Positions 7,211-50,400 of a DNA stretch of 64,000 nucleotides are shown piece after piece. Below the pieces are notes generated by a model. It had not been told where the DNA came from and did not search any database. It saw only the letters and a list, made by a program, of their open reading frames with translations. Each line of letters starts with the position of its first letter. The stretch's first letter is position 1. Made by a program: the position numbers and the translations under genes. The stretch is from assembly GCF_030013595.1 (NCBI RefSeq), contig NZ_CP122768.1; one strand, written 5' to 3'. The stretch is from Escherichia coli. GTDB taxonomy: Bacteria > Pseudomonadota > Gammaproteobacteria > Enterobacterales > Enterobacteriaceae.

Positions 7211-7987
7211 ATGCTGATTCTTATTTCACCTGCGAAAACGCTCGATTACCAAAGCCCGTTGCCCACCACGCGCTATACGCTGCCGGAGCTGTTAGACAAT
7301 TCCCAGCAGTTGATCCATGAAGCGCGGAAACTGACGCCTCCGCAGATTAGCACGCTGATGCGCATCAGCGACAAACTGGCGGGTATCAACGCCGCTCGCT
7401 TTCATGACTGGCAGCCAGATTTCACGCCGGAGAATGCCCGCCAGGCGATTCTGGCGTTTAAAGGTGATGTCTACACCGGCTTGCAGGCCGAAACCTTCAG
7501 CGAAGACGATTTCGATTTTGCCCAACAGCATTTGCGAATGCTTTCCGGCTTGTATGGCGTACTGCGCCCGCTCGATTTAATGCAGCCTTATCGTCTGGAA
7601 ATGGGGATCCGTCTTGAGAATGCCCGAGGGAAAGATCTGTATCAATTCTGGGGAGATATCATCACCAACAAGCTGAACGAGGCGCTCGCAGCACAAGGCG
7701 ATAATGTGGTGATTAATCTGGCGTCAGATGAGTATTTTAAATCGGTGAAGCCGAAGAAATTGAATGCCGAGATTATCAAGCCGGTGTTCCTCGATGAGAA
7801 GAACGGCAAATTTAAGATCATCAGCTTCTACGCTAAGAAAGCACGCGGTCTGATGAGTCGTTTCATTATTGAAAATCGGCTGACCAAACCAGAGCAACTG
7901 ACTGGTTTTAATAGCGAAGGTTACTTCTTTGATGAAGCTTCCTCCAGCAATGGTGAACTGGTGTTTAAACGCTACGAGCAGCGTTAA
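7211..7987 (+). CDS. yaaA: Peroxide stress protein YaaA (UPF0246)
   Basis: 258-aa ORF; synteny. Confidence 0.9.
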
Positions 7988-42565: not shown

Positions 42566-44152
42566 TTAATGCTCGCGGGTCTGGTGGAACTGAACGTCCG
42601 GATAACGTTCCTGCGCCAGACGCAGGTTGACCATGCTGGTAGCGATGTAAGCGAGGTTATCGCCGCCATCAAGCGCCAGTTGGCTTTCGTTCTTACGCTT
42701 GAACTCTTCGAATTTCTTCGCGTCCGCACATTCTACCCAGCGGGCAGTGGCAACGTTGACTGACTCATACACTGCTTCAACGTTGTATTCGCTCTTCAGG
42801 CGCGCTACCACCACATCAAACTGCAGCACACCAACTGCACCAACGATCAGGTCGTTGTTGGAGATCGGACGGAACACCTGCACCGCGCCCTCTTCGGAAA
42901 GCTGTACCAGCCCTTTGAGCAGCTGTTTTTGCTTCAGCGGATCTTTCAGGCGGATACGACGGAACAGTTCCGGTGCGAAGTTCGGAATACCGGTGAACTT
43001 CATCATCTCCCCCTGGGTAAAGGTGTCACCGATCTGAATAGTGCCGTGGTTGTGCAGGCCGAGGATATCGCCCGGATACGCTTCTTCAACGTGCGAACGG
43101 TCGCCCGCCATAAAGGTCAGCGCGTCGGAGATCACCACATCTTTCGCGGTGCGCACCTGGCGCAGCTTCATGCCTTTTTCATATTTACCGGATACCACGC
43201 GCATAAACGCCACGCGGTCGCGGTGTTTCGGGTCCATGTTGGCCTGAATTTTAAATACGAAGCCGGTAAATTTGTCTTCGCTCGCTTCTACGGTACGGGT
43301 ATCAGTCTGACGCGGCATCGGCGCAGGTGCCCACTCCACCAGGCCATCCAACATATGATCGACGCCGAAGTTACCTAGCGCAGTACCGAAGAATACCGGA
43401 GTGATTTCGCCCGCAAGGAATAATTCTTTGTCGAACTCGTTAGACGCGCCTTTCACCAGTTCCAGTTCGTCACGCAGCTGCTGCGCCAGATCTTCACCAA
43501 CCGCAGCATCGAGATCCGGGTTATTCAGCCCTTTAACAATGCGGACTTCCTGAATGGTGTGGCCTTTACCACTCTGATAAAGATAGGTTTCATCTTTATA
43601 AAGGTGGTAAACGCCTTTAAACAGCTTGCCGCAGCCAATCGGCCAGGTGATCGGCGCACAGCCGATTTTCAGCTCGTTCTCAACTTCATCGAGCAGTTCC
43701 ATCGGGTCGCGGATATCACGGTCAAGTTTGTTCATAAAGGTGAGGATCGGCGTGTCACGCAGACGGGTAACTTCCATCAGCTTGCGGGTACGATCTTCAA
43801 CACCTTTTGCGGCGTCGATAACCATCAGGCAGCAGTCCACCGCCGTCAGGGTACGATAGGTATCTTCCGAGAAGTCTTCGTGCCCCGGGGTGTCGAGCAG
43901 GTTAACCAGGCAATCGTGATACGGAAACTGCATCACAGACGTAGTAATGGAGATCCCACGCTGCTTTTCCATCTCCATCCAGTCCGACTTAGCGTGCTGG
44001 TTGGAACCACGGCCTTTTACTGTACCGGCGGTCTGAATGGCCTGTCCGAACAGCAGCACCTTCTCGGTGATGGTAGTCTTACCGGCGTCTGGGTGAGAAA
44101 TAATTGCAAAGGTTCTTCTTTTCGCTACCTCTGCGGCCAAAAGGCTTGTCAT
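42566..44152 (-). CDS. prfC: Peptide chain release factor 3
   Basis: Translation [40 protein letters not shown] (GTPase G1); track ORF starts at an upstream TTG (44179). Confidence 0.9.
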
Positions 44153-44171
44153 AATTGTTGTCTCGTTGATT

Positions 44172-44288
44172 ATGTACAATCATATGTACAAAGAAAAATT
44201 CATGCCGCTGATTGTACATTTTGGAGGTATCAGAGCATAGCAGAACATGATCAGTAGGTGTATTTGTAGCCAAAGCTCATTTGTACAT
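44172..44288. repeat. Cluster of four TGTACA-core repeats near the prophage-host junction
   Basis: ATGTACAA at 44172-44179 and 44184-44191; inverse TTGTACAT at 44212-44219 and 44281-44288. Confidence 0.35.
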
Positions 44289-44305
44289 GCCGCAATCTTC
44301 GTTCT

Positions 44306-44356
44306 ATTGACACTGTTTATTCACCCAGTTAAAAATAAGACTGTATACAAACACAG
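44306..44356 (+). promoter_or_regulatory. SOS-type promoter with LexA box upstream of the dinI-like gene
   Basis: Consensus -35 TTGACA (44306-44311); CTGT-N8-ACAG box CTGTATACAAACACAG (44341-44356); RBS GAGGG (44361-44365). Confidence 0.6.
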
Positions 44357-44371
44357 TATAGAGGGAATTTT

Positions 44372-44648
44372 ATGCGTATTGAGATCTGCATAGCCAAAGA
44401 GAAAATGACTAAACTGCCAAACAGCGCTGTGGATGCGTTAGAAGGAAGAATTAACCCGACGCACCGGTAAGCGTTATGAAGATGTAGAGGTGATCGTAAA
44501 AGCCACCAGCAATGATGACCTTTCTGTTACACGCACCGCCGATAAAGATTCAGTTAAAATTTTTGTTCAGGACACTCTGAAAGATACCTAGGAATTTGCT
44601 GACGAGTGATTTAGTTCATCATCTCTGGACACAATTCACTTGTATTGA
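44372..44648 (+). pseudogene. dinI-like gene with one frameshift and two stops at Trp positions
   Basis: Frame 1 [23 protein letters not shown] ends at TAA after a 1-nt frame slip near 44441; next frame continues [49 protein letters not shown], then TAG (44589-44591), EFADE, TGA (44607-44609), FSSS; the two stops sit where DinI proteins have the TWESADDWF tryptophans. Confidence 0.65.
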
Positions 44649-44674
44649 CTTTAAGATCATTAAATTGTAATAAT
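44645..44674 (+). promoter_or_regulatory. Candidate sigma-70 promoter for the leader/SLATT/RT transcript
   Basis: -35 TTGACT (44645-44650), 18-nt spacer, extended -10 TGtAATAAT (44666-44674); predicted start near 44681. Confidence 0.45.
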
Positions 44675-44680
44675 TCAAAA

Positions 44681-44815
44681 GGATGGGGCAGTTTTTTCCT
44701 CTTGCGTATGCAAGGGCGGCTCTGATAATGAACAGTAATATTTTACTGTTGAGCTTATGCTCACTGATCCTGCCGAGCAGGATGTTCAACGGTTCCAATA
44801 TATCCTGCCCCTTCC
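44681..44815 (+). ncRNA. Candidate structured leader or ncRNA upstream of the SLATT-RT operon
   Basis: 11-nt inverted repeat GGATGGGGCAG (44681-44691) and CTGCCCCTTCC (44805-44815), 10 of 11 bp, enclosing four hairpins: 44701-44714 (5 bp), 44731-44750 (8 bp), 44751-44762 (4 bp), 44767-44783 (7 bp). Alternative reading is a leaderless 51-codon N-terminal extension from ATG 44683. Confidence 0.35.
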
Positions 44816-44835
44816 GCTTTTTAAAAGGATATTTT

Positions 44836-45387
44836 ATGCATGAAAATATTTGGTTTACATATAAAGCCCGTATTCAAGCGCACCATAGACTAGAATGGCT
44901 TGAAAAACACTCTCAATTTATCCTCGTTTGGTATGCTATATTGAGTGCGGTACTTTCAATTATAACGTTACGATTTCCAAAATTTCTAGGAGATAATACA
45001 GATATCGTTGCGGCAATACTTTCAGTGGCTCTACTGGGTATTTCTCTGATCGTATCTAACCTAGATTATCGTGGTCGAGCAATAGCCATGAGAAGGAATT
45101 ATATTGCACTACAGAGACTCTATTTTGATATTAATAACGGCCAACAGTTAACTCTTGAACAGAAAGAAAAATATTTTAATTTGCTCAATGAGGTTGAGAA
45201 TCATCGTGACATAGATGATAAAGTTTCAAGGGTAACTCAAGTTGGACTTACGACTAGACTCCCCACACAAAAAGAAAAAATAATTGTTAAATTATGGATA
45301 TTACGTCGAATGTTTATTACTGTCGGCCTTTATATCCTCCCATTAATATGTCTTTGGATTGACTATGAATGCAAGCAGAGTTTTTAA
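44836..45387 (+). CDS. SLATT-like multi-TM protein (putative membrane effector)
   Basis: ATG 44836 with RBS AAGGA (44824-44828, 7-nt spacer); 183 aa; two adjacent hydrophobic helices (FILVWYAILSAVLSIITL, IVAAILSVALLGISLIVSNL) flanked by amphipathic helices, plus C-terminal MFITVGLYILPLICLWI; stop 45385-45387 overlaps RT start. Confidence 0.7.
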   Translation: MHENIWFTYKARIQAHHRLEWLEKHSQFILVWYAILSAVLSIITLRFPKFLGDNTDIVAAILSVALLGISLIVSNLDYRGRAIAMRRNYIALQRLYFDINNGQQLTLEQKEKYFNLLNEVENHRDIDDKVSRVTQVGLTTRLPTQKEKIIVKLWILRRMFITVGLYILPLICLWIDYECKQSF

Positions 45388-46735
45388 AAAGTCATTCTCG
45401 AAAAAAAACCTTCTAAAAGTATACAATGAAAAAATCAAAGAATCAGGAGCGATTGGCATAGATCGGATTCGTCCATCAAAACTTGATTTAACAATAAAGA
45501 ATGAGATCACTTTTATTTTTGAAAAGGTTAATTGTGGAAATTATAAATTTACAGCATATAAAGAAAAATTAATATCTAAAGGGGCTAACTCTATCCCCAG
45601 ACAGATTTCCATACCAACTGCCAGGGACAGAATTACCCTTAGGGCTCTCTGTGAATGCCTTACAGAAATATATCCTAACTCCAGATTAAAACTACCACAT
45701 ACAGTAATTGACTTATTGAAAAATGCATTAAACAGCGATCTATATGCTGAATATGCAAAAATAGATCTCAAAAGTTTCTATCCTTCAATTGAACATAAAT
45801 TGATATTTAATGCAATAAAAAATAAGATTAGAAAAAAAGAAATTAGGCAGTTAATAACATCATCATTAATCGTGCCTACTGTAAGTGGAAGTACAGGAAG
45901 CAAAGGTGTCCCTAATAATACCAGAGGAGTACCTCAGGGGTTAGCAATATCAAACATTTTAGCTGAAATATCACTATCTGATTTCGACAATGAAATCAAT
46001 AAAATGCATGACATATGGTACATGCGATACGTTGATGACATTCTTATTTTAACGCAAAAAGATCAAGCAACAAAAATTGCATCTCATATCATTGATAAGC
46101 TTCAATCATTAAATTTAAACCCACATCCATTAAATGAAGAGAACTCAAAATCCAAAGTAGGCAGCTTGGATGAAAGTTTCAACTTTTTGGGCTACCACAT
46201 AAAAAATCGAGAATTATTGATAAAACATGAGAGCATTCTTAGATTTGAGTCATCCTTAGCAAAAATTTTTACTGCATATAGACACGCTCTACTACAAGCT
46301 AAAAATAAGCGCGATAAAGAACGAGCTGTTGCATATTGTCAGTGGAAACTAAATCTTAGAATTACGGGGTGTGTGTTTGAAGGTAAACGATTGGGATGGG
46401 TATCGTACTTCTCACAAATAACGTCAACAGCTCAACTTCGAGCTGTTAATCATACGATCAATAATCTTATCCGCCGATTCGGCCTTTCATCAGAAATAAA
46501 ACCAAAGTCTTTGATTAAAACTTTCTATGAACTCCGCAGGGGTAGAGCGGAGACTTTTAAATACATACCTAACTTTGACAATCTACATATATCTCAGAAA
46601 CGAGAAATTGTTTCTATGTGGATAGGGAAAGAGAATGAAAAAAAACTTAGCAATAGTGAAATAGAGAGAAAATTTAAATTTAAAATTGCGAAATCAGTAA
46701 AAGAGCTTGAAGAGGACATTTCAGGGATATCATAG
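45365..46735 (+). CDS. Reverse transcriptase (RT domain plus ~170-aa C-terminal extension), family unassigned
   Basis: RT motifs in order: GIDRIRPS...IPRQISIPTARDRITLRAL, YAKIDLKSFYPSI, GVPQGLAISNILAEISLSDFD, YMRYVDDILIL (YVDD at 46028-46039), FLGYHI; ATG 45365 (track ORF starts at TTG 45359); AT-rich. Confidence 0.85.
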   Translation: MNASRVFKKSFSKKNLLKVYNEKIKESGAIGIDRIRPSKLDLTIKNEITFIFEKVNCGNYKFTAYKEKLISKGANSIPRQISIPTARDRITLRALCECLTEIYPNSRLKLPHTVIDLLKNALNSDLYAEYAKIDLKSFYPSIEHKLIFNAIKNKIRKKEIRQLITSSLIVPTVSGSTGSKGVPNNTRGVPQGLAISNILAEISLSDFDNEINKMHDIWYMRYVDDILILTQKDQATKIASHIIDKLQSLNLNPHPLNEENSKSKVGSLDESFNFLGYHIKNRELLIKHESILRFESSLAKIFTAYRHALLQAKNKRDKERAVAYCQWKLNLRITGCVFEGKRLGWVSYFSQITSTAQLRAVNHTINNLIRRFGLSSEIKPKSLIKTFYELRRGRAETFKYIPNFDNLHISQKREIVSMWIGKENEKKLSNSEIERKFKFKIAKSVKELEEDISGIS

Positions 46736-46847
46736 ATATGTAATCCATTAAATCCTTTATATATAAAGCAATAAACACACTATTTAAATTCACAAATCAG
46801 CCGCAGTATCCTGCCATGACAAGTTGCTGCGGCATATCACAAAACGA

Positions 46848-47432
46848 TTACTCCATAACAGGGACCGCAGGCCACTCAATATCAGGTGCAGTTGATGTAT
46901 CAACACGGTTCAGCAACACCCGATACTTTTTCCAGGCTTCCAGCAATGAGTTTTCTTCCTCCGTTGCGATTTCCAGATCTACAGCATCCTGAAGTGGCGC
47001 AATATGCTCACTGGCTACCTGCATCAGGTTGTTTTTTGTTTCTTCCGCCTCCCGGATCCGGAACAGTTTTTCTGCTTCCGTATCCTTCAACCAGGCTGTG
47101 CCGTTCCACTTCTGATATTCCCCTTCCGGCGATAACCAGGTAACATTTTCCGGTAACGGACCGAGTTCAGAAATAAATAACGCGTCGCCGGAAGCCACGT
47201 CATAAACCGTTTTACCCCGATGATCTTCAACGAGATGCCACGATGACTCATCACTGTTGAAAACAGCCACGAAGCCAGCCGGAATATCTGGCGGTGCAAT
47301 ATCGGTACTGTTTGCTGGCAGACCTGTATGAGGCGGAATATATGCGTCACCTTCACCAATAAATTCATTAGTTCCGGCCAGCAGATTATAAATTTTTATG
47401 GTCCGTGGTTGTTCACTCATTCTGAATGCCAT
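46848..47432 (-). CDS. tfa: Tail fiber assembly protein Tfa
   Basis: 194-aa [61 protein letters not shown]; reads as lambda Tfa. Confidence 0.9.
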
Positions 47433-50400
47433 TATGCAAGCCTCACAATATAGTTAAATGCGATGTTTTTGACGGTGTTTTCCGCGTTACCAGCAGCGTT
47501 AACGGTGATGGTGTGTCCATGTGAACCAATCGCAACGGAGTGCGTGTGTGCACCAATACCGACAGTATGTGCGTGTGCACCTGCAGATGCTGCTGTGCCG
47601 GACAGTGAGTGGCTATGGTTACCATCTGTACTGGTATTAGCTAACGCCCCCGTAGACATACCTACTGAGCCTTGTACACCCCAGGTATTTTGACCTGAGC
47701 TTGTATAACCATATTGATAAGTATCTTTAAAAACACTGGGGTTAAATCGACGGCCATCTCTATGGCTGTGATTACCAGCTGCATTCGTGCTGCCACTTAA
47801 ACTATGGGTATGCGCACCAGTGTTATTCGTGGATTTAGTGCCGTAATCAAACGACGATGTGGTTTTCGTCCCCAAATCAGTACTGGATGCGCTGGCGCTG
47901 TGGGTATGCGATTTTATGCCGTCCTGTTCCTGAGACAATACGGCACGACCACTGGCGGGCTTGCCCTTAATCGTCCAGCCACGCATATCAGGGATCACGC
48001 CTGACGGATAAGCGGCTGCAAGTTTCGGGTAGGCAGATTTGTCAAAAGTCTGCCCCTGCATCAGGGCATAACCAGACGGAACGGTATCTGATGGCCACGG
48101 AATTGGTGCGCCAACTGGGTAGCTTTCTGGTGGAAGATTTTTCGAGGTATAAACTTCTGCCCAGCCTTCCTCAAAACCATAGCCATCTCTTGAGGAACGG
48201 TAGAACAGACCTCCATTTCTGTAATGCGCCTTCATCTGCAGGGTCCGGCAACTTCCGACTCCGGTATAGAAGTTAACCAGAATATAGCTGTCGCCAGAGC
48301 GGGTGACATTGTAAGCGCCTGATTCGGCATTCCAGGGAACGCCACCATCCGCATCGGCATATGTATCCGTTGCCCTTCTGGCAAAAGCAGCCACATGCGC
48401 GGCGGTTAAAGTAATATCTTTTGAACCATCAAACTCAACCCCAGAAACCAGTCTTGGCGTTTGCAGCTTTGTTGCTGTCAATGCGTTACCGTTCAGACTT
48501 GCAGACAGTTTGGTTCCAATAACCAGTTCGCCGGTTGCGTTATCAATAGCAAACGGTCTTAATGTATTCCAGCCACCATAAACATCACCTTGATTGGTAA
48601 GCAGCAGGTAAGTTTTAGCGCCATCATTACGCCATAATGCCCCATACTCCCCACCTATCATTCGAATCTGATTACCACCACGCGCTACAATTTCGTCTGT
48701 GGCAAAAAGTTTTTTGCACGACAAGTTATCGTTAACGATTAACGAATGGGACTCATAAAAACCACGCCCACTCTTAAAATCAAGGATAACGTCCGCCGCG
48801 ATACATTCAGTCGCCGGATTTGTTGCCCCAAACTTATAGGTCGTATCATTAACAACGAGATCAGCACCAGGTGCGGATATTGACAGGCCATCTTCGATAA
48901 ACGCAAAAACAGGGAAAGCAGCGCCATCAACATAGAACACAGAGCGCAAATCATCGCCCTTATTACTCATCATTATTGAGTGGATGGCTCGTTCATTGTT
49001 TTGATATTGCCAGAACATTCCATAAGCATAACGCCCCCTGTCAGTCCAGCCACCAGGCATAACAAATCCGTTAAACTCGCAGTTATTCATCGGATCGCCT
49101 GCGGTTCTCGTTGCCGTGGTGATAATGACCCTTGATGCCAGTTCGCTTACTGAGCCAGCAGAACGCATAACAACAACAGGGTAATATTTTCCAGATGTTG
49201 CACCTGCAGGAGCGTTAACCCGCACATAACGCATACCACGCTTATCAGCAAAGTCTGTTTTACTGACCGCGTTAATGTTGTTCAGGAAGCGTCCCTTATC
49301 GGGTATATCAGCGCCGTTCTGGTCTTTCTGCAGACGTTTCTCTGCATTGTCATAGGCTGATTTTACTGCCTTTGGCGTTGCCGCCAGCGTTTCAGACGAA
49401 CTGTTGGTCGCACAGCTGAGCTGTACTATCCCCTTTTTCGTCGTACTTGCATCCTCAAGCGCCACGGCGGATGCAATATCCTCTGCCCGTTTTGCCGCTG
49501 TCTCGGCGCGCGTTGCCGCGGATTCCGCCGTACTTTTGCTCTGTGCTGCCGCCGTCGCACTGCCAGCTGCCTCTGTCGCCTTCGTGGATGCTGTCGTGGC
49601 GCTGCCCTTCGCTGCGGACGCTTGTCTGGTCGCCTCATCTTTTGAAGCAGACGCCGATGATGCCGATGACGCCGCCGAACTGGCGGACGATGCAGCTGCC
49701 ATTTTTGAGGATTCTGCGCTGGTTTCCGACGCTTTCGCGTTCGTCTCGGATGTCTTCGCTGCGGAAGCAGACCTCGCTGCTGCGCTGGCCTGTTCAGTGG
49801 CTTCGCCAGCCTTCGTTGTGGCTGTTGAAGCAGACGATGCGGCACTTTCTGCCGATTTTCCGGCGGCGGTGGCACTGGCTGAGGCCTGCCCGGCACTTGT
49901 TGACGCGGCACTGGCAGACGACGCAGCCGCTGTTTTTGAGCCTGCCGCAGCCGAGGCGCTCTGTCCCGCTGCCGTTTCAGAAGACCTGGCGTTTGTCTCA
50001 GACGTCTTTGCCGCCTTCGCGGAATTGCCTGCCGCCGTTGCCGAGGAAGCGGCACTACTGGCGCTTGATGATGCGTTCGTTTCTGATGATTTCGCTGCCT
50101 CTTTTGAGGCCGCCGCATCCCGGGCTGAGGTGGCTGCTTCTGACGCCTTCGTGGTCGCGGCGGATGCAGAAGTTGCTGCTGATTGTTGTGACGCTGCCGC
50201 ATTCGTTTCTGACGTTTTCGCCGCAGCGGCACTGGTAGCTGCCGCGCTTTTTGAGGACTCTGCAGCAGCAGCACTTTTCGATGCTTCACTGGCCTTTGTT
50301 GATGCCGTTCCTGCGCTGGAAGATGCTGACTGAGCCGACGACGCGGCCTGTCCGGCTGACGTGCTGGCTGCGCGTGCTGAGCCTGCAGCATCAGTCGCAT

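Follow-up and report, generated by a model that had tools for sequence, protein, structure and literature searches.

Introduction

The window analysed here, a 64,000-nt stretch of an Escherichia coli chromosome (contig NZ_CP122768.1), carries a gene for a SLATT-domain protein that overlaps a reverse transcriptase (RT) gene. Directly 5' of the pair lies a promoter followed by a hairpin-rich leader bracketed by an inverted repeat. This arrangement raises the question of whether the leader functions as an RNA, and of which kind, or whether it belongs to a protein-coding sequence. A preliminary description, made from the letters of the sequence alone, had proposed an msr/msd-like or DRT-like non-coding RNA (ncRNA) and, as an alternative, an N-terminal extension of the SLATT protein. 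UG17 RTs and SLATT proteins are two of the three parts of the DRT10 defence system (Tang et al. 2025, PMC12632851; Sanchez-Nieto et al. 2026, bioRxiv). The results reported below make it highly probable that the interval 44645-44817 comprises the promoter and the gene of a DRT10 ncRNA, the third component of a prophage-borne SLATT and UG17-RT anti-phage module.

A SLATT-RT module at one end of a prophage

The coordinates of all features are collected in Table 1. Two minus-strand landmarks flank the module on the chromosome: prfC, at 42566-44179, and lambdoid tail-fibre genes, which begin at 46848. Strain ETEC-2265 carries an identical stretch, whose annotated gene order (prfC, frameshifted DinI-like gene, SLATT-domain protein, reverse-transcriptase protein, tail fibre assembly, tail fibre, Lom and J) places the ncRNA-SLATT-RT module in an accessory region at one prophage end. 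The RT gene starts inside the SLATT gene, with an overlap of 23 nt. Among 14 homologues of the UG17 RT with 59-100% identity, the YVDD motif (Y222-D225) and S456 were invariant, and the C-terminus of the window RT reads ...ISGIS. The ribosome-binding site of the SLATT gene has its counterpart in the homologues, which carry GGAG or AGGA at the equivalent position. The cassette was found in 187 of 5426 complete E. coli genomes.

Table 1. Coordinates of the features assigned to the module in the window
Feature	Position	Strand	Description and evidence
Sigma-70 promoter of the ncRNA	44645-44674	+	-35 TTGACT at 44645-44650; 18-nt spacer; extended -10 TG-T-AATAAT at 44666-44674
DRT10 (UG17-A, Eco3-like) non-coding RNA	44681-44817	+	137 nt; ends inferred by counting in the published Eco3DRT10 register
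Basal stem (SL1/P1), 5' strand	44681-44691	+	GGAUGGGGCAG; fold; compensatory changes in 9 of 11 pairs
SL2	44699-44716	+	7-bp stem, GUAU loop; 3 of 7 pairs compensatory; 97.1% of cells pair; an invariant U.G pair fits only the plus strand
SL3	44731-44750	+	8-bp stem AACAGUAA/UUACUGUU; 100% of cells pair; 2 compensatory pairs
SL4	44751-44762	+	GAGC-UUAU-GCUC; A-U to G-C in 8 sequences
SL5	44767-44783	+	AUCCUGC-CGA-GCAGGAU; 100% of cells pair; U-A to C-G in 10 sequences
Single-stranded template loop	44784-44804	+	GUUCAACGGUUCCAAUAUAUC; unpaired in MFE, centroid and consensus structures
Predicted template A-B	44787-44795	+	CAAC-GGUUC; RNA positions 107-115; positions match Eco3DRT10 CAAU-GAUUC
Predicted realignment segment A'	44796-44799	+	CAAU; RNA positions 116-119; identical to Eco3DRT10 A'
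Basal stem, 3' strand	44805-44815	+	CUGCCCCUUCC; fold and covariation
Ribosome-binding site of the SLATT gene	44824-44829	+	AAAGGA, 6 nt 5' of ATG 44836
SLATT_5 two-transmembrane effector gene	44836-45387	+	183 aa; PADLOC RTasSLATT 2.4e-57; NCBIfam SLATT_5 132 bits against a cut-off of 60; PGAP coordinates
UG17 / DRT10 reverse transcriptase gene	45365-46735	+	456 aa; YVDD motif; C-terminal Ser456; PADLOC RT_UG17 8.4e-159, 527 bits

Several observations concern the surroundings of the module. The DinI-like gene (window 44373-44592, plus strand), directly 5' of the ncRNA promoter, is frameshifted in the window allele (PGAP label 'frameshifted') and is intact, with 82 aa, in cassettes of 94-96% identity. 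Just 3' of the RT gene, a match to Rfam IS009 (RF02111; 226 bits, E 1e-56) spans 46891-47089 on the minus strand, within the tail fibre assembly gene (46848-47432, minus strand). The dinI-ncRNA-SLATT-RT-tfa cassette also occupies a second chromosomal site, adjoining dusA, in E. coli NT1F34 (L002), where a tyrosine integrase is present and phage tail genes survive only as remnants; at the prfC site the cassette was found with or without the full tail-fibre region. Two IMG/VR contigs (L021 and L029), whose cassettes are otherwise ~95% identical, have broken RT frames and a C-terminus that is no longer ...ISGIS, and represent pseudogenes or assembly errors.

The leader folds into a structure conserved by compensatory changes

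Folding of 44681-44817 with RNAfold gave a minimum free energy (MFE) of -54.2 kcal/mol (z = -5.67), and none of 200 shuffled sequences folded as well; for the longer interval 44681-44836 the z value was -4.16. The MFE and centroid folds both consisted of a basal stem, P1, enclosing SL2-SL5 plus a single-stranded loop of ~21 nt. The 11-nt inverted repeat noticed in the preliminary description, GGATGGGGCAG (44681-44691) against CTGCCCCTTCC (44805-44815), pairs at 10 of 11 positions as it had claimed, and its four consecutive short hairpins are all present, the one placed at 44701-44714 being the core of the 7-bp stem 44699-44716.

Homologous loci were gathered from IMG/VR, GTDB genomes and complete E. 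coli genomes. The alignment comprised 25 distinct upstream regions, ranging from Escherichia and Photorhabdus (names per records), through viral contigs whose RTs are 62-82% identical, as far as Pseudomonas and Stutzerimonas. The results showed that 97.1% of cells in the five-helix structure of these 25 sequences were standard pairs, compared with 90.9% in shuffled columns and 47-58% when the pairing partners were slid. Compensatory changes occurred in 16 of 33 pairs, and no shuffle out of 500 reached the observed values. From Escherichia to Pseudomonas, compensatory changes maintain each of the five helices, and invariant U.G pairs fix the ncRNA strand as plus. RNA folding and covariation across homologous loci, which the preliminary description had named among the ways to check an RNA at this site, thus placed the structure well above chance.

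A covariance model built from the 25 homologues matched the window at 44674-44826 with 147 bits (E 9e-37); 38 loci returned a match, in every case a single one directly 5' of SLATT. A second match in the window (7732-7839, minus strand; 14.6 bits, E 0.05) was treated as chance and set aside as a second ncRNA, since its score is weak and it falls inside a 258-aa ORF on the opposite strand. Alphaproteobacterial UG17 loci (L047-L053; RT 31-34% identical) gave no match to this gammaproteobacterial ncRNA model; they are probably members of a different UG17 subtype that has an RNA of its own, and the null result is consistent with the report that an ncRNA model detects members of its own subtype only (Sanchez-Nieto et al. 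2026, bioRxiv). SLATT was only weakly detectable, in three of these loci, and in L053 it lies roughly 1.8 kb 5' of the RT match. A scan of 43800-47500 against Rfam 15 returned no match within 44600-44840 even at E <= 10. The DRT10 RNA has no Rfam 15 family, and membership rests on our own covariance model and the literature.

One consensus fold, obtained with RNAalifold, swapped SL4 for a GGCUC:GAGC helix. It was set aside and SL4 was kept, because SL4 changes from A-U to G-C in 8 sequences, whereas the exchanged helix pairs in 99% of cells with no compensatory change. The two segments concerned are GGCUC at 44718-44722, 3' of SL2, and the SL4 5' arm GAGC at 44751-44754; across the 25 homologues their pairing shows one-sided changes only, and the helix may be an alternative or transient one enclosing SL3.

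The ncRNA promoter and its relation to the operon

The near-consensus promoter of the preliminary description (TTGACT, 18 nt, TGtAATAAT) is present where it had been placed, and its position is conserved in homologues. The promoter scan scored it 10/12 with an extended -10 (TG at 44666-44667, AATAAT at 44669-44674). Promoter-like matches on their own were not above chance in this AT-rich stretch, where the scan found 16 against 11.4 expected. The window promoter is nevertheless credible, because the TGn-extended -10 lies 6-8 nt 5' of the basal stem in all 25 homologues. Enterobacterial homologues also retain TTGACT at -35, and the promoter on the Eco3DRT10 source contig is identical to that of the window.

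Between the end of the ncRNA and the SLATT ATG the window has 18 nt, holding just the ribosome-binding site; in the homologues the basal-stem end is 19-30 nt from the SLATT start codon, with only a Shine-Dalgarno sequence inside. Because of this short gap with only a ribosome-binding site, the SLATT-RT mRNA is probably made by read-through from the ncRNA promoter. A discrete 137-nt RNA would then come from processing or from protection within the RT complex.

Coding and other RNA explanations for the leader

The alternative put forward for the region was a 51-residue hydrophobic N-terminal extension of SLATT, translated from a near-leaderless ATG at 44683. The frame is open in the window from 44683 into SLATT, giving a 234-aa ORF, but the extension is refuted because in-frame stops interrupt the 44683 frame in 24 of 27 distinct homologous upstream sequences, in which indels are not multiples of three. 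Even E. coli alleles that are ~95% identical, the Eco3DRT10 source included, carry a TAA five codons 5' of the SLATT ATG; in the Eco3 allele the change from TTTTTAAAAGG to TTTTAAAAAGG creates a TAA in this frame. SLATT family models align from residue 51-53 of the 44683 ORF, and a ribosome-binding site precedes ATG 44836, where PGAP starts SLATT. Substitutions in the region preserve base pairs, not codons: homologues conserving the amino-acid frame over pairing, which the preliminary description had named as evidence against an RNA, were looked for, and the opposite was found. We give the extension practically no credence, and the long ORF from 44683 is shown to be an accident of one allele.

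Two further alternatives also treat the leader as RNA. A retron-type msr/msd RNA would use the inverted repeat as a1/a2 and serve an RT making branched msDNA primed from a guanosine 2'-OH; the order of terminal inverted repeat, internal hairpins, effector gene and RT gene resembles some retrons, and NCBI names some homologues 'retron-type RT'. The window RT, however, scores 62.9 bits with the retron_St85_RT model against a cut-off of 235, its best family being UG17 at 527 bits. The fold has only four short hairpins of 4-8 bp and no long msd hairpin, as the preliminary description had itself remarked, and the near-identical Eco3DRT10 makes no cDNA across its RNA but tandem 9-mers, protein-primed from S456 (PMC12632851). 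The analogy with msr/msd and a1/a2 thus fails on the RT clade and the absent msd stem, and a retron is extremely improbable here. A cis-acting leader of the attenuator or riboswitch-like kind would control SLATT-RT expression through GCAGGAU, which could pair with either 44767-44773 or 44802-44808. Both pairings are possible in the window, which upholds that part of the mutually exclusive folds proposed earlier for GCAGGAT and the second ATCCTGC; the ncRNA probably lies within the operon 5' untranslated region, 18 nt from the SLATT ATG, and E. coli alleles have a U-run after the basal stem. The alternative helix, though, is not conserved: pairing reaches 70.9% versus 70.1% in shuffled columns, and 150 of 500 shuffles do as well. 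Other genera lack the U-run, and the RNA of the published systems is bound by the RT and acts in trans (PMC12632851; Sanchez-Nieto et al. 2026). A cis-acting leader as the main function is therefore very unlikely, and a secondary cis effect of the ncRNA on operon expression is possible.

The window RNA is a close relative of the Eco3DRT10 RNA

The best comparison is with Eco3DRT10, in which the ncRNA, SLATT and the RT are all required for defence (PMC12632851). Its RT binds a 137-nt RNA located 5' of SLATT, with a large basal stem decorated with four stem-loops, and the loop after SL5 contains an A-B-A' template, CAAU-GAUUC-CAAU, at positions 107-119 (PMC12632851). The RT primes from its C-terminal S456 and copies A-B repeatedly into tandem GAATCATTG, realigning on A' each round in a telomerase-like manner; scrambling of SL5 abolished repeat synthesis (PMC12632851). 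DRT10 is described as protein-primed copying of a 7-11-nt template loop with no msDNA synthesis, and the template loop has been reported as the least conserved part of the RNA. An independent study of another UG17-A system arrived at an agreeing model: the RNA has its own promoter, and it no longer accumulated when the basal stem was disrupted, a defect repaired by compensatory mutations (Sanchez-Nieto et al. 2026). The two studies give opposite directions, a fall or a rise, for the change in cDNA upon infection (PMC12632851; Sanchez-Nieto et al. 2026).

The supplementary table rows listed from Tang et al. contained no match to the window RNA or the Eco3 RNA. We established the link through the Eco3DRT10 RT, named OKX54664 in the supplement of Tang et al. 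(PMC12632851), and its contig LRLX01000203.1 (L054). An exact-sequence look-up showed that the RTs of this contig and of one other locus (L004) are identical to OKX54664, and that the window RT is CAR20996 / WP_000994250, with 22 of 458 residues differing from OKX54664. The OKX54664 contig has the gene order of the window, and the template on it matches the published CAATGATTC-CAAT exactly. The RNA on this contig and the window RNA are identical at 131 of 137 nt (95.6%), with substitutions at positions 12, 25, 27, 94, 110 and 112. The register of the two RNAs argues for a 5' end at 44681 and a 3' end at 44817 in the window, because template positions 107-119 coincide with the published numbering; the transcript start of about 44681 predicted in the preliminary description agrees with it. 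The idea of a DRT-like ncRNA with its own promoter has proved right on the strength of the UG17 RT, the SLATT_5 protein and this match, and the reading made from sequence alone had located the ncRNA and its 5' end correctly.

The window RNA has what defines a DRT10 RNA of the UG17-A type, namely gene order, covarying stems, an A-B-A' loop, homology, and an RT with YVDD and the priming serine. The element is already known, as a near-identical allele of an experimentally characterised RNA. By analogy with that allele and with other homologues for which this has been shown, the RNA from the window allele would be a discrete species bound by the RT, would serve as the template for tandem-repeat cDNA and would be needed for phage defence. 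The RT would bind the ncRNA and prime from its own C-terminal serine S456, as does the near-identical Eco3DRT10 enzyme, and would copy the short template adjoining SL5, CAACGGUUC, at RNA positions 107-115. SL5 would be the template-boundary hairpin, as in Eco3DRT10. Copying would halt at this boundary, the nascent DNA end would unpair and re-anneal to the downstream CAAU (116-119), and the cycle would repeat. The expected product is single-stranded DNA in long tandem arrays, predicted as (GAACCGTTG)n and joined covalently to the RT, and this repeat DNA would in some way control the membrane effector SLATT.

The window allele carries a variant template

Counted from 44681 as position 1, CAAC occupies positions 107-110, GGUUC 111-115 and CAAU 116-119, so that the window template CAACGGUUC is predicted, in the Eco3DRT10 register, to give the cDNA repeat 5'-GAACCGTTG-3'. 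The A-B-A' scan found the pattern in 27 of 28 homologous template loops. A repeat of the form [U]CAA...[U]CAA, flanking a variable segment of 5-7 nt with a period of 9-11 nt, was present in 26 of 28 homologous upstream sequences and absent in L040 and L046. In the window allele A and A' share CAA and then differ, C against U, and the Eco3 register is weakened.

A different register has to be weighed for this reason. The RT could copy to the base of SL5 and realign on GUUC (44784-44787 and 44792-44795), giving an 8-nt repeat (CGTTGAAC)n or mixed 8/9-nt products. With the two changes from Eco3, U110C and A112G, the GUUC/GUUC match grows to 4 nt and the perfect CAA match shrinks to 3 nt, so that the window contains a competing 8-nt register, GUUC-AACG-GUUC; Eco1DRT10, whose repeats are imprecise due to a cryptic realignment site, offers a precedent (PMC12632851). 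Against this, the register conserved across genera is [U]CAA...[U]CAA, and SL5 and the GUU spacer are invariant; therefore the template boundary at C107 should equal that of Eco3. A dG opposite U119 still permits a wobble pair, and 3 nt of A-A' homology sufficed experimentally (PMC12632851). We consider the 8-nt or mixed register somewhat unlikely, and the 9-nt repeat remains the predicted product.

Among the loci retrieved, the window form of the template is the more frequent one in E. coli. The ncRNAs of two E. coli lineages (L003 and L020) differ only at template nucleotides 110 and 112, in keeping with the reported low conservation of the template loop. It is conceivable, at rather low probability, that the template is a hotspot of natural reprogramming, that the window substitutions shift the balance between 9-nt and 8-nt repeats, and that the sequence or length of the repeat is under diversifying selection. 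If so, such selection might act, for example, through matching to a faster-evolving SLATT protein or through evasion of phage counter-defence, and the window allele may make a different or mixed repeat. As a separate observation, SLATT is the most divergent component between the window and the other E. coli alleles (L001-L021), differing at about 20 of 183 residues (11%), compared with 22 of 456 residues (5%) in the RT and 3-7 of 137 nt in the RNA.

Comparison with known systems

DRT10 is a bacterial, telomerase-like, protein-primed repeat-adding RT in phage defence and was described in 2025-2026. The present analysis adds modestly to this picture: it gives precise coordinates for the ncRNA, its helices and its template in the window, and, the template CAACGGUUC differing from that of the studied allele, a concrete prediction for the cDNA repeat.

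Eco3DRT10 resides in the same prophage cassette (dinI-like gene, ncRNA, SLATT, RT and tail-fibre genes) adjoining prfC. The five helices, the template loop positions 107-119 and the A' segment CAAU are all common to the two RNAs, and the RTs are 95% identical, both with YVDD and S456. The two alleles differ in the template (CAAUGAUUC in Eco3DRT10 versus CAACGGUUC in the window, accounting for two of the six substitutions), in the repeat (GAATCATTG versus the predicted GAACCGTTG), in A-A' homology (4 nt versus 3 nt plus a wobble) and in the SLATT protein, which is about 89% identical. The UG17-A ncRNA of Escherichia sp. E3659 (10.64898/2026.04.29.721553) is likewise followed by SLATT and an overlapping RT, has an independent promoter, needs its basal stem for RNA stability and contains a template loop with two short direct repeats. 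Compared by description, it differs from the window RNA in being about 143 nt long and drawn with six stem-loops, and its template ACUUAUUACU yields 7-nt AGTAATA repeats.

More distant systems share parts of this organisation. Retron msr/msd RNAs resemble the window RNA in having several hairpins closed off by a terminal inverted repeat, and in lying next to genes for an RT and an effector, whereas the window RNA has neither an msd stem nor branching-G priming, its RT belongs to a different clade, and the retron product is single-copy msDNA while that of DRT10 is tandem repeats. The DRT9 (UG28) ncRNA is likewise structured and lies 5' of a class 2 UG RT; its template loop follows a stem-loop, synthesis is protein-primed, and Tang et al. 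noted that its architecture closely resembles that of the DRT10 RNA (PMC12632851). It differs in its conserved poly-U template, which gives poly-dA homopolymers from a tyrosine primer, whereas DRT10 uses a heteropolymeric A-B-A' template and a serine primer. Telomerase RNA with TERT shares with DRT10 a short template with an alignment segment downstream of it, a structured element that bounds the template on its 5' side, and cycles of extension, unpairing and realignment. Telomerase, however, extends the 3' end of chromosomal DNA and is not protein-primed, TERT is much larger, and the RNAs are unrelated in sequence; the function of telomerase is chromosome maintenance, whereas that of DRT10 is defence.
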